From Escherichia phage EcF-vB: a stretch of 64,000 nucleotides of DNA. The stretch lies in sequence record PV683228.1. The stretch is one strand, 5' to 3'. Below, piece by piece: positions 52,196 through 53,296 of this stretch. Positions within the stretch are counted from its first letter, which is position 1; the number at the start of each line of letters is the position of its first letter. The notes beneath the pieces were generated by a model. It saw only the letters and a list, made by a program, of their open reading frames with translations. It had not been told where the DNA came from and did no database searches. A program made the position numbers and the translations under genes.

Positions 52196-53296
52196 CAGTT
52201 ATTACTAAAATAGTTCTGGCAAACACTCACTTAAAAATACTGAAGGTAAAGCCTTATAAAGGGCTATCTGTACAGTTGAGGGGTAAATACTAGGGAGAAA
52301 CTGAAAAGAGCCTATAAAGGGCTATAGAAAGCTTTTAAAAGGGCTATTTAAAAGGTCACTAAGAGGAGAAGGGAACGATAAGACCAGAGATAGTGACCAT
52401 GTTAATAGCTTGTTAAAAAGGTTAAACACTTGTTAGGAACTTGTTAATTATCTTAACAAAATAACTCTTTAAAATTAACTTGTTAGCTATTGTTAGTCAT
52501 CTGTTAAGATTCTGTAAAGCCTATTCAGCACTTGTTAATTGGTATTGTTACCAATCCCTAGAAAACTGTTACCCTCTTGTTAAAACTGTTAGGAATCTGT
52601 TAAGACCTTTAAAGAGATGTTAAAGAGATGTAGCAACTGTTAAGAGATTGTTAATGATATTTTAAAATTTTGCAAAGGGGGTGTTAAGGAGCTGTTAAGG
52701 GCTACCAAGCAGATATACATCTTCTACAGATATTTTTGAGTTCCTTCAAAGACCCTAAAAAAATGACTAGACAGTCTTATTTTATAAAAATTTTAAAATT
52801 CTGAATAATTACCTATACAGTCTTTTAAAAATACAGGTAGAAACAGGCTTATAAGATACCTTGTTAGTACCGTGTTAGACCTTGTGAGATAAGGTCTGTG
52901 AAGATATTCCTGTTAAGTTTGTTAAAACAGTCTATATAGAGGCTTAGTAATACCTAGTGAACACCTATAGAGGGTAACATAGCTAACCTAGAGATTAAGA
53001 GGTGTATAGGAGCTTCTAAGAGGGTGTAGAGGGATGATTAAGGTGATTGTATAGGTTGTTAAGAAGGCTTGTTAGAAGAGTGTTTAGAAGGCTTATACAG
53101 AGGGGCTATTAAGACCACTAGATAGTTACTAAGATACTATATAATACTATATAACTATATAGAGAGTAAGATTAAGAAGGTTGTTAAGAAGGATAGATAT
53201 TTTTGTTCACATATGATGGTGACCCAGAGGTTGGGACAACCGATAAAATTTTATAAAAATTAAAAAGCCCCCAATTAAGGAGGCTCTTAAGATATT
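52196..53296. repeat. non-coding centre of the inverted repeat, dense in short iteron-like repeats
   Basis: About 19 copies of YTGTTA(A/G) within 52400-52700, three AAAGGGCTAT copies at 52256-52350, GTTAAGAAGG and ACTATATA repeats at 53000-53200; no ORF of 60 aa or more. Confidence 0.7.
53264..53285 (-). terminator. putative rho-independent terminator (same element as 3922-3945)
   Basis: Minus-strand AGCCTCCTTAATTGGGGGCTTTTTAAT downstream of gene 53297-53968. Confidence 0.45.

Follow-up and report, generated by a model that had tools for sequence, protein, structure and literature searches.

A helically phased TGTTA array in the terminal repeat of a Felix O1-like phage, and a private inverted duplication beside it in record PV683228.1

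Sequence record PV683228.1 of Escherichia phage EcF-vB was analysed over a window of 64,000 nucleotides (nt), in which a gene-free centre (positions 52196–53296) packed with short same-strand repeats lies between two mirrored arms. Alignment with related phages shows that this centre corresponds to the right three quarters of a direct terminal repeat (DTR) of about 600 bp followed by a non-coding leader, and the array of TGTTA sites within it is probably a recognition array for end formation and packaging. The motif is enriched, helically phased, and conserved, and copies of it form mirrored boxes at the two boundaries of the repeat. Packaging is also the best fitting of the roles that the original prediction had offered for these repeats.

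Matches to the centre and its flanks were found in 288 phage records, at up to 92–93% identity; nearly all of these records are Felixounavirus or related Ounavirinae. Along its entire length, the centre is 90–93% identical to many independent records, which disposes of the concern that it might be consensus noise. Positions 1–25000 of the window are collinear with the same genomes at about 95% identity, from the DNA polymerase to the tail fibre genes; by sequence, the source phage is a Felixounavirus, a Felix O1-like myophage of the Ounavirinae. The counterpart of the centre in Felix O1 (NC_005282) is a collinear stretch at 12902–13928, which adjoins ORF24. A gap of 1.6 kb without genes separates ORF23 (+ strand) from ORF24 (− strand) there, and this stretch is its right two thirds. 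Mooglevirus, Suspvirus, and Kolesnikvirus have an equivalent gene-free gap flanked by convergent gene blocks. In the relatives, the region lies between such blocks at the physical genome ends, and the mirrored arms are absent. As predicted, the centre holds no open reading frame (ORF) of 60 amino acids (aa) or more; the longest are 47, 42, and 35 aa.

Terminal repeats are already known in this group. The DTR of UAB_Phi87 was determined as 608 bp by Bal31 digestion and run-off sequencing (PMC4837284) and that of Ro111lw as 613 bp by PhageTerm (PMC6454146); the Felix O1 paper infers short terminal repeats, and a keyword search of its passages found nothing on the gap beside ORF24. Identical sequence stands at both ends of the records of D4 (PP886228; 581 bp), Ro111lw (MH571750; 613 bp), and Erwinia phage M7 (MM7; 444 bp). 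The UAB_Phi87 record (JN225449.1) begins in the tRNA region and carries no repeat, so that the mapped DTR cannot be placed from it. The D4, Ro111lw, and NBSal004 records share their first base, that of GCCCCCTTAACA, and the BPS15Q2, ECOH1, and REP10 records begin within about 20 nt of its start. From 52246 onward, the window aligns with both end copies of the D4 repeat (84% and 89% identity), and positions 52246–52706 (+ strand) represent the right ~460 bp, or three quarters, of the DTR (~143–581 of the D4 DTR). The repeat ends in the window with GGCTACC at 52700–52706, and the alignment thus places its right boundary between 52706 and 52707. The first ~142 bp of the DTR, left boundary included, are missing from the window, where the left boundary sequence GCTA^GCCCCCTTAACATTTTCTTAACAA (^ marks a boundary or junction) finds no match at up to three mismatches.

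Within 52246–53296, the TGTTA core has 25 copies on the + strand and two on the − strand. Dinucleotide shuffles gave 2.2 ± 1.4, and none of 1000 reached 25; the predicted excess over chance is therefore real. The density of the core is 23.8 per kb in the centre and 1.5–1.7 per kb across the remaining window, and the richest 307-bp stretch elsewhere holds 4 copies vs 18 here. The extended form YTGTTA(A/G) occurs 19 times on the + strand of the centre and once on the − strand. The original prediction had given this same number but had put it all in 52400–52700; the count holds for the whole centre, whereas 52400–52706 contains 13 extended motifs and 18 TGTTA cores. The main array, with 18 same-strand TGTTA(A/G) sites, spans 52393–52706 (+ strand) and includes one reverse TGTTA copy at ~52452–52459. 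No second cluster of the extended motif was found anywhere in the window.

The sites of the array are spaced by 9–13 bp or by multiples of about 10.4 bp, the successive distances being 11, 20, 11, 39, 10, 11, 31, 13, 21, 11, 9, 11, 20, 20, 11, 33, and 11 bp. Their phase is 10.4 bp, one helical period (Rayleigh R 0.74, p ~0.003), and the only tandem arrays found by TRF have a period of 10–11 and 2–4.5 copies. Although the spacers have diverged, this spacing pattern is preserved in Felix O1 and D4, and mostly in Ro111lw, SUSP2, and Moogle. When seven phages belonging to three genera were aligned, 86% of the TGTTA columns were invariant vs 57% of the others (p 6e-7). The view of the original prediction that these are arrayed protein-binding sites, and not coding or CRISPR sequence, is supported by the bias to one strand, by the phasing with the helix, and by a conservation that is stronger in the motif than in the spacers. 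A CRISPR array would need repeats of 23–50 bp and unique spacers of similar length; here the period is 10–11 and the core 5–8 bp.

The same motif recurs at both boundaries of the repeat. The right boundary reads ...TGTTAAGGGCTACC^AAGCAGATATACA, or in fuller form ...TGTTAAGG(A/G)GCTGTTAAGGGCTACC^AAGCAGATATACA. The left boundary is GCTA^GCCCCCTTAACA, whose reverse complement is ...ATGTTAAGGGGGC^TAGC (longer form ...TTGTTAAGAAATTGTTAAGAAAATGTTAAGGGGGC^TAGC). Because this reverse complement matches the right motif, the same motif is aimed at both cuts. The right box, TGTTAAGGGCTACC^AAGCAGATATACA, has one exact match in the window (52693–52719) and no other, and it is conserved in all nine sequences compared. 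Mirrored copies of TGTTAAG lie no more than 25 bp from both DTR boundaries in four genera of the Ounavirinae; in Kolesnikvirus, the equivalent mirrored pair is GTTAAC...GGC(CA)CTAA at both ends. When Felixounavirus and Kolesnikvirus were compared by blastn, only the last ~120 bp of the DTR and the boundary were alignable within the 1.6-kb gap. A conserved terminal box, TTTTGCAAAGG-N28-AAGCAGATATACA (52668–52719, + strand), spans the right boundary together with the motif TGTTAAGGGCTACC, and blastn detects no other part of the centre in Kolesnikvirus phages. The spacing of its form TTTTGCAAAGG-N28-AAGYAGATATACA is kept exactly in the four genera and also in 10 IMG/VR contigs; in those contigs with sufficient flank, the left box lies 441 or 572–593 bp upstream. 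Short DTRs with recognition repeats are a known kind of feature, and the DTR of this group had been mapped before. What is added here is modest, namely the phased array and the mirrored boundary boxes, and a keyword search of passages of the Felix O1, UAB_Phi87, and Ro111lw papers found no mention of either.

The leader (52707–53262, + strand) is a unique non-coding stretch that runs from the DTR to the last gene of the left genome end. It contains an AT-rich stretch (~52700–52850, 72–75% A+T) and holds seven more TGTTA sites, arranged in pairs (52862/52873, 52911/52920, 53057/53070, and 53182). Two further repeats named in the original prediction were also recovered here, namely GTTAAGAAGG at 53058 and 53183 and ACTATATA at 53136, 53146, and 53154 (within 53136–53161); so was AAAGGGCTAT, inside the DTR, at 52258, 52316, and 52338. 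None of these three counts was reached in 1000 shuffles. Homologous leaders with clusters of TGTTAAGA are present in Moogle, SUSP2, MM7, and SB18. On the other side of the gap, the unique right-end spacer of Felix O1 between ORF23 and the DTR (5405–5869 of the compared stretch), which is absent from the window, is also non-coding and carries short repeats of its own, AACGCTCTATAACGCTCTATAAC and two copies of GTTACGTAAA that adjoin the left DTR boundary. As these repeats are different ones, the two genome ends carry different repeat sets outside the DTR.

We read the array as a recognition scaffold because its motif is conserved and phased, is mirrored at both boundaries, and belongs to a boundary box whose spacing is kept. 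The ~20 helically phased same-strand TGTTA(A/G) sites would be binding sites of the end-forming and packaging machinery, probably of a putative small-terminase-like recognition protein that coats one face of the DNA at the concatemer junction. The mirrored copies at the two DTR boundaries would set the positions of two cuts, or of staggered nicks, and with them the extent of the repeat; binding would serve cutting as well as packaging. The repeat may then be duplicated during packaging in a T7-like manner, as proposed for T7-type phages, and the expected termini of the source phage would be GCCCCCTTAACA and ...GGGCTACC.

Several observations weigh against this reading. The boundaries are taken from relatives, and the left one does not occur in the window. 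No candidate for the binding protein emerged from the genes checked: neither PHROG nor Pfam gave an informative family for the 66-aa gene that precedes the large terminase gene, and searches with the homologues of ORF24 and ORF25 were equally uninformative. The UAB_Phi87 paper likewise reports that the large terminase was the only one recognised in that group, with no small terminase (PMC4837284). The array continues, more sparsely, into the unique leader, and a pure cutting signal would not need sites beyond the DTR. Phased direct repeats beside an AT-rich stretch also fit a replication origin, and the attribution of the arm-specific deletions described below to population heterogeneity or to assembly error consists of guesses.

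The closest parallel is with the Ounavirinae DTRs themselves (UAB_Phi87, Ro111lw, D4, and Erwinia phage M7), to which 52246–52706 is homologous (84–89% to D4) and with which the window shares the right boundary box, the internal array, and the neighbouring gene; the copy in the window differs from them by the loss of the left boundary along with the first ~142 bp, and by its junction with an inverted copy of late genes. A more distant parallel is the concatemer junction of T7 and T3, a terminal repeat with adjacent short-repeat arrays and pac elements, in which the repeat is duplicated during packaging; the details of the T7 arrays are reportedly to be found in Dunn and Studier 1983 and Chung and Hinkle 1990. 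The two systems share a short exact DTR and a non-permuted genome, and in both a short motif is present at the junction in many copies; Ro111lw was classed as 'similar to phage T7, short DTR' (PMC6454146). In contrast to T7 and T3, with which there is no sequence similarity, the array here is internal to the repeat and has a strong 10.4-bp phase; the phage is a myovirus with an unrelated terminase lineage, and no phage RNA polymerase is known to take part. Clusters of short recognition motifs also flank and adjoin the cleavage point in P1 (pac), lambda (the R sites of cosB), and SPP1 (pacL and pacR), and the present region is like them in having such clusters on either side of a cleavage point. 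P1 and SPP1 package by the headful from one cut, and the P1 hexamers contain Dam sites; by contrast, TGTTAAG contains no GATC, and there are two boundaries about 600 bp apart with ~20 sites between them.

The original prediction had also proposed origin iterons. On such a reading, the TGTTA sites would be bound by a phage or host initiator that melts the AT-rich stretch at ~52700–52850. In this respect the region does resemble the iteron origins of lambda (ori), P1 (oriR), and plasmids, which have same-orientation repeats beside an AT-rich stretch: its repeats are direct, phased, and conserved, the block of 72–75% A+T lies just outside the DTR, and the whole is gene-free and sits where gene orientation switches. 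The conserved unit, however, is only 5–8 bp at 10–11 bp spacing, much shorter than the 17–22 bp of classical iterons; 52246–53296 contains no DnaA box at up to one mismatch; and no initiator gene is adjacent, the flanking genes having no Rep-like family. The GC-skew switch tracks gene orientation and is not independent evidence. Moreover, an origin would leave the mirrored motif at both DTR cut sites unexplained, and the array lies within a repeat mapped as terminal. We therefore regard an origin as unlikely and as a less likely role than recognition of the terminal repeat for packaging, with which it could coexist.

Two further functions have been weighed. A transcriptional control region or a non-coding RNA locus, whose sites would be operators of a phage regulator or part of an RNA gene, would suit a long conserved gene-free stretch with a few promoter-like matches. 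Sigma-70 promoter-like sites are not enriched, however (11 vs 6.4 ± 2.3 in shuffles); no Rfam match rises above noise; the extended motif clusters nowhere else in the window; and both flanking gene blocks read towards the region, which leaves nothing downstream to control. Such a locus is very unlikely. Among the individual candidates rejected, a Phe-leader match (Rfam, searched over 51800–53700) fell on the terminator described below and reached 26.8 bits, short of the gathering score of 55 (E 0.09), and a TTGAYA...TAAAAT pair to the right of the DTR is conserved but has a 20-nt spacer by manual count. A centromere-like partition site is suggested by the parC site of plasmid R1, an array of 11-bp phased direct repeats bound in the ParR/parC manner, to which the array is similar. 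Since the phage is virulent, no partition genes were found among the flanking genes checked, and the array lies within the terminal repeat, we consider a partition site extremely unlikely.

The remaining question concerns the arms. The original prediction placed the centre at the symmetry axis of an inverted repeat, between arms ending at 52195 and 53297, and took this position to suggest an origin or a resolution site. The arms are present, are at least 10.7 kb long, and run to the window end at 64000; their inner ends are corrected to about 52245 and 53287. The left arm (41150–52245, + strand) is collinear with 1–41149, and the right arm (53287–64000, − strand), which is cut by the window end, joins the centre as it does natively. 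The mirror symmetry is inexact, as the left arm lacks 723 bp present in the right, the right arm lacks 1062 bp, and indels accumulate at the inner end. The ~11-kb inverted repeat is almost certainly not native, as judged from its private junction, the noise of the inner left arm, the homopolymer deletions elsewhere in the record, and the deletions private to each arm. Because it is not native and the relatives lack the arms, the position of the centre between them is uninformative on an origin or a resolution site, and that part of the original prediction falls.

The only non-native adjacency is that between 52245 and 52246, where ...ACTGAAG^GTAAAGCC... replaces the native ...GCTCCT^GTAAAGCC..., and it is this join that removes the first ~142 bp of the DTR with the left boundary. 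A 45-mer across the junction has no match in IMG/VR, and a 29-mer none in JGI metagenome contigs. The inverted repeat was found in no relative, the best of which covers 51% of 39001–64000. Towards the junction, the inner end of the left arm (51345–52245, + strand) is a noisy reverse-complement copy of 53287–54150 without an intact frame. Over these ~900 bp, the two arms differ by 64 substitutions and 65 indel events, mostly of 1–2 nt, and the differences grow denser towards the junction. The ORF24 and ORF25 frames are destroyed in the left arm, and 51335–52245 contains no + strand ORF above 45 aa. The inner left arm is 73–77% identical to the same relatives to which the right-arm copy is 84–87% identical, which, with half of the differences being indels of 1–2 nt, rules out a second allele from another phage and points to noise.

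The large terminase gene (36411–38400, − strand) is fragmented, in comparison with phage Mushroom, by four deletions in homopolymer runs (37129, 37534, 37894, and 38268), which indicates an error-prone and poorly polished draft. The 1062 bp missing from the right arm (left-arm 42934–43995; break at 62216^62217) comprise six tRNA genes (Asp, Tyr, Asn, Met, Glu, and Pro) and the 3' end of a vWFA-like gene; the break is clean and shows no microhomology, and none of 251 related records has the deletion. The 723 bp missing from the left arm (right-arm 56290–57012; break at 49203^49204) are the equivalents of Felix O1 ORF31–33 and include the gene annotated as a D-Ala-D-Ala carboxypeptidase in humlepung. 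This deletion, likewise clean and found in none of 209 related records, leaves a 74-aa fusion ORF (49058–49282). Look-ups of the exact proteins of the fusion ORF and of the ORF25 homologue found no match on record. Within the 209–251 records with matches to the flanks, the deletions are rejected as natural variants, since no record runs without a break across either junction.

The geometry, in which the reverse complement of 53287 and outwards is attached to 52246, is that expected of fold-back or template switching, be it in vitro or in vivo, and the collapse of sequence quality at the join argues for few supporting molecules. Most likely, the inverted repeat is a chimeric join in an error-prone draft assembly, and at most a rare aberrant molecule. 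If it were real, it would be a palindromic head-to-head product of fold-back or template-switch priming near the left end, with the centre as its loop, by analogy with the hairpin intermediates proposed for T7 concatemer processing. The geometry fits such priming, and 52250–52265 is weakly complementary to the terminator hairpin at 53263–53288, although the longest inverted pairs do not include this one. No strong short inverted repeat was found by which fold-back priming could account for the junction; there are two 5-bp complementarities only. The junction is absent from at least 288 relatives and from both public contig collections, the arms differ by private deletions, and both the falling quality towards the join and the damage to the terminase gene speak for a faulty draft. 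A product without the left DTR boundary could not be packaged as such, and chimeras formed in vitro share the geometry. A real inverted repeat, loop included, is thus quite unlikely.

The humlepung record (MN850564) opens with a fold-back of its own, an 80-nt inverted copy (94%) of its positions 120–199 within 1–199. The outer end of this fold-back (CTCCTG, position 199) is the junction nucleotide of the window to within one base, a point that would favour a real product. The agreement is either a coincidence or the mark of a site ~142 nt inside the DTR that is fragile or nicked. We give only a slim chance to the idea that the join is the trace of a real site-specific strand interruption at CTCCT^GTAAAGCC. 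In that case, duplication of the terminal repeat in Felix O1-like phages would involve hairpin or fold-back intermediates, and the phased TGTTAAG array with the mirrored boundary boxes would be the scaffold of that reaction.

Felix O1-like phages are widely used in Salmonella typing, biocontrol, and therapy. To our knowledge, junction recognition and repeat duplication in phages with short exact DTRs have been detailed only for T7 and T3, and we know of no described small terminase or recognition site in the Felix O1-like group. The ~20 phased TGTTAAG sites, the mirrored boundary boxes, and the TTTTGCAAAGG-N28-AAGYAGATATACA box provide a map of candidate recognition sites for these phages. As important as this map is a practical lesson: PV683228.1 is a rough draft in which genes are broken, the terminal repeat is truncated, and an inverted duplication, most likely chimeric, is present, and it is unsuited as a reference genome.

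Two smaller elements accompany the array within the DTR. The three AAAGGGCTAT copies are held by dyad-like elements at 52250–52345 (+ strand), which read AGCC-TTATAAA-GGGCT (52250–52265), AGCC-TATAAAG-GGCT (52309–52323), and AGC-TTTTAAAAGG-GCT (52330–52345); relatives keep these positions as TATAAAGAGCTAT. In the alignment, a 22-bp palindromic module, AATTGGTATTGTTACCAATCCC, is inserted in the array at 52537–52558 (+ strand). Its location is common to the window and humlepung but different in Ro111lw and in SUSP2, and no copy is present in Felix O1, D4, or Moogle; the module resembles a very small mobile hairpin insert. In the compared relatives, copies of it lie at ~362–383 in one and at ~1697–1718 and ~1086–1105 in another.

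To the right of the leader, the intact homologue of ORF24 (53297–53968, − strand) is the last gene before the left genome end and has no Pfam match. It is followed by an intrinsic terminator with a 10-bp stem and a T run (53263–53288, − strand), and the Moogle record annotates a terminator at the equivalent site. A large cluster of tRNA genes is present as well, 26 of them on the minus strand in the left part; tRNA genes occupy 38452–43581 and 62688–63993 of the window, and six of the 26 are duplicated in the right arm.

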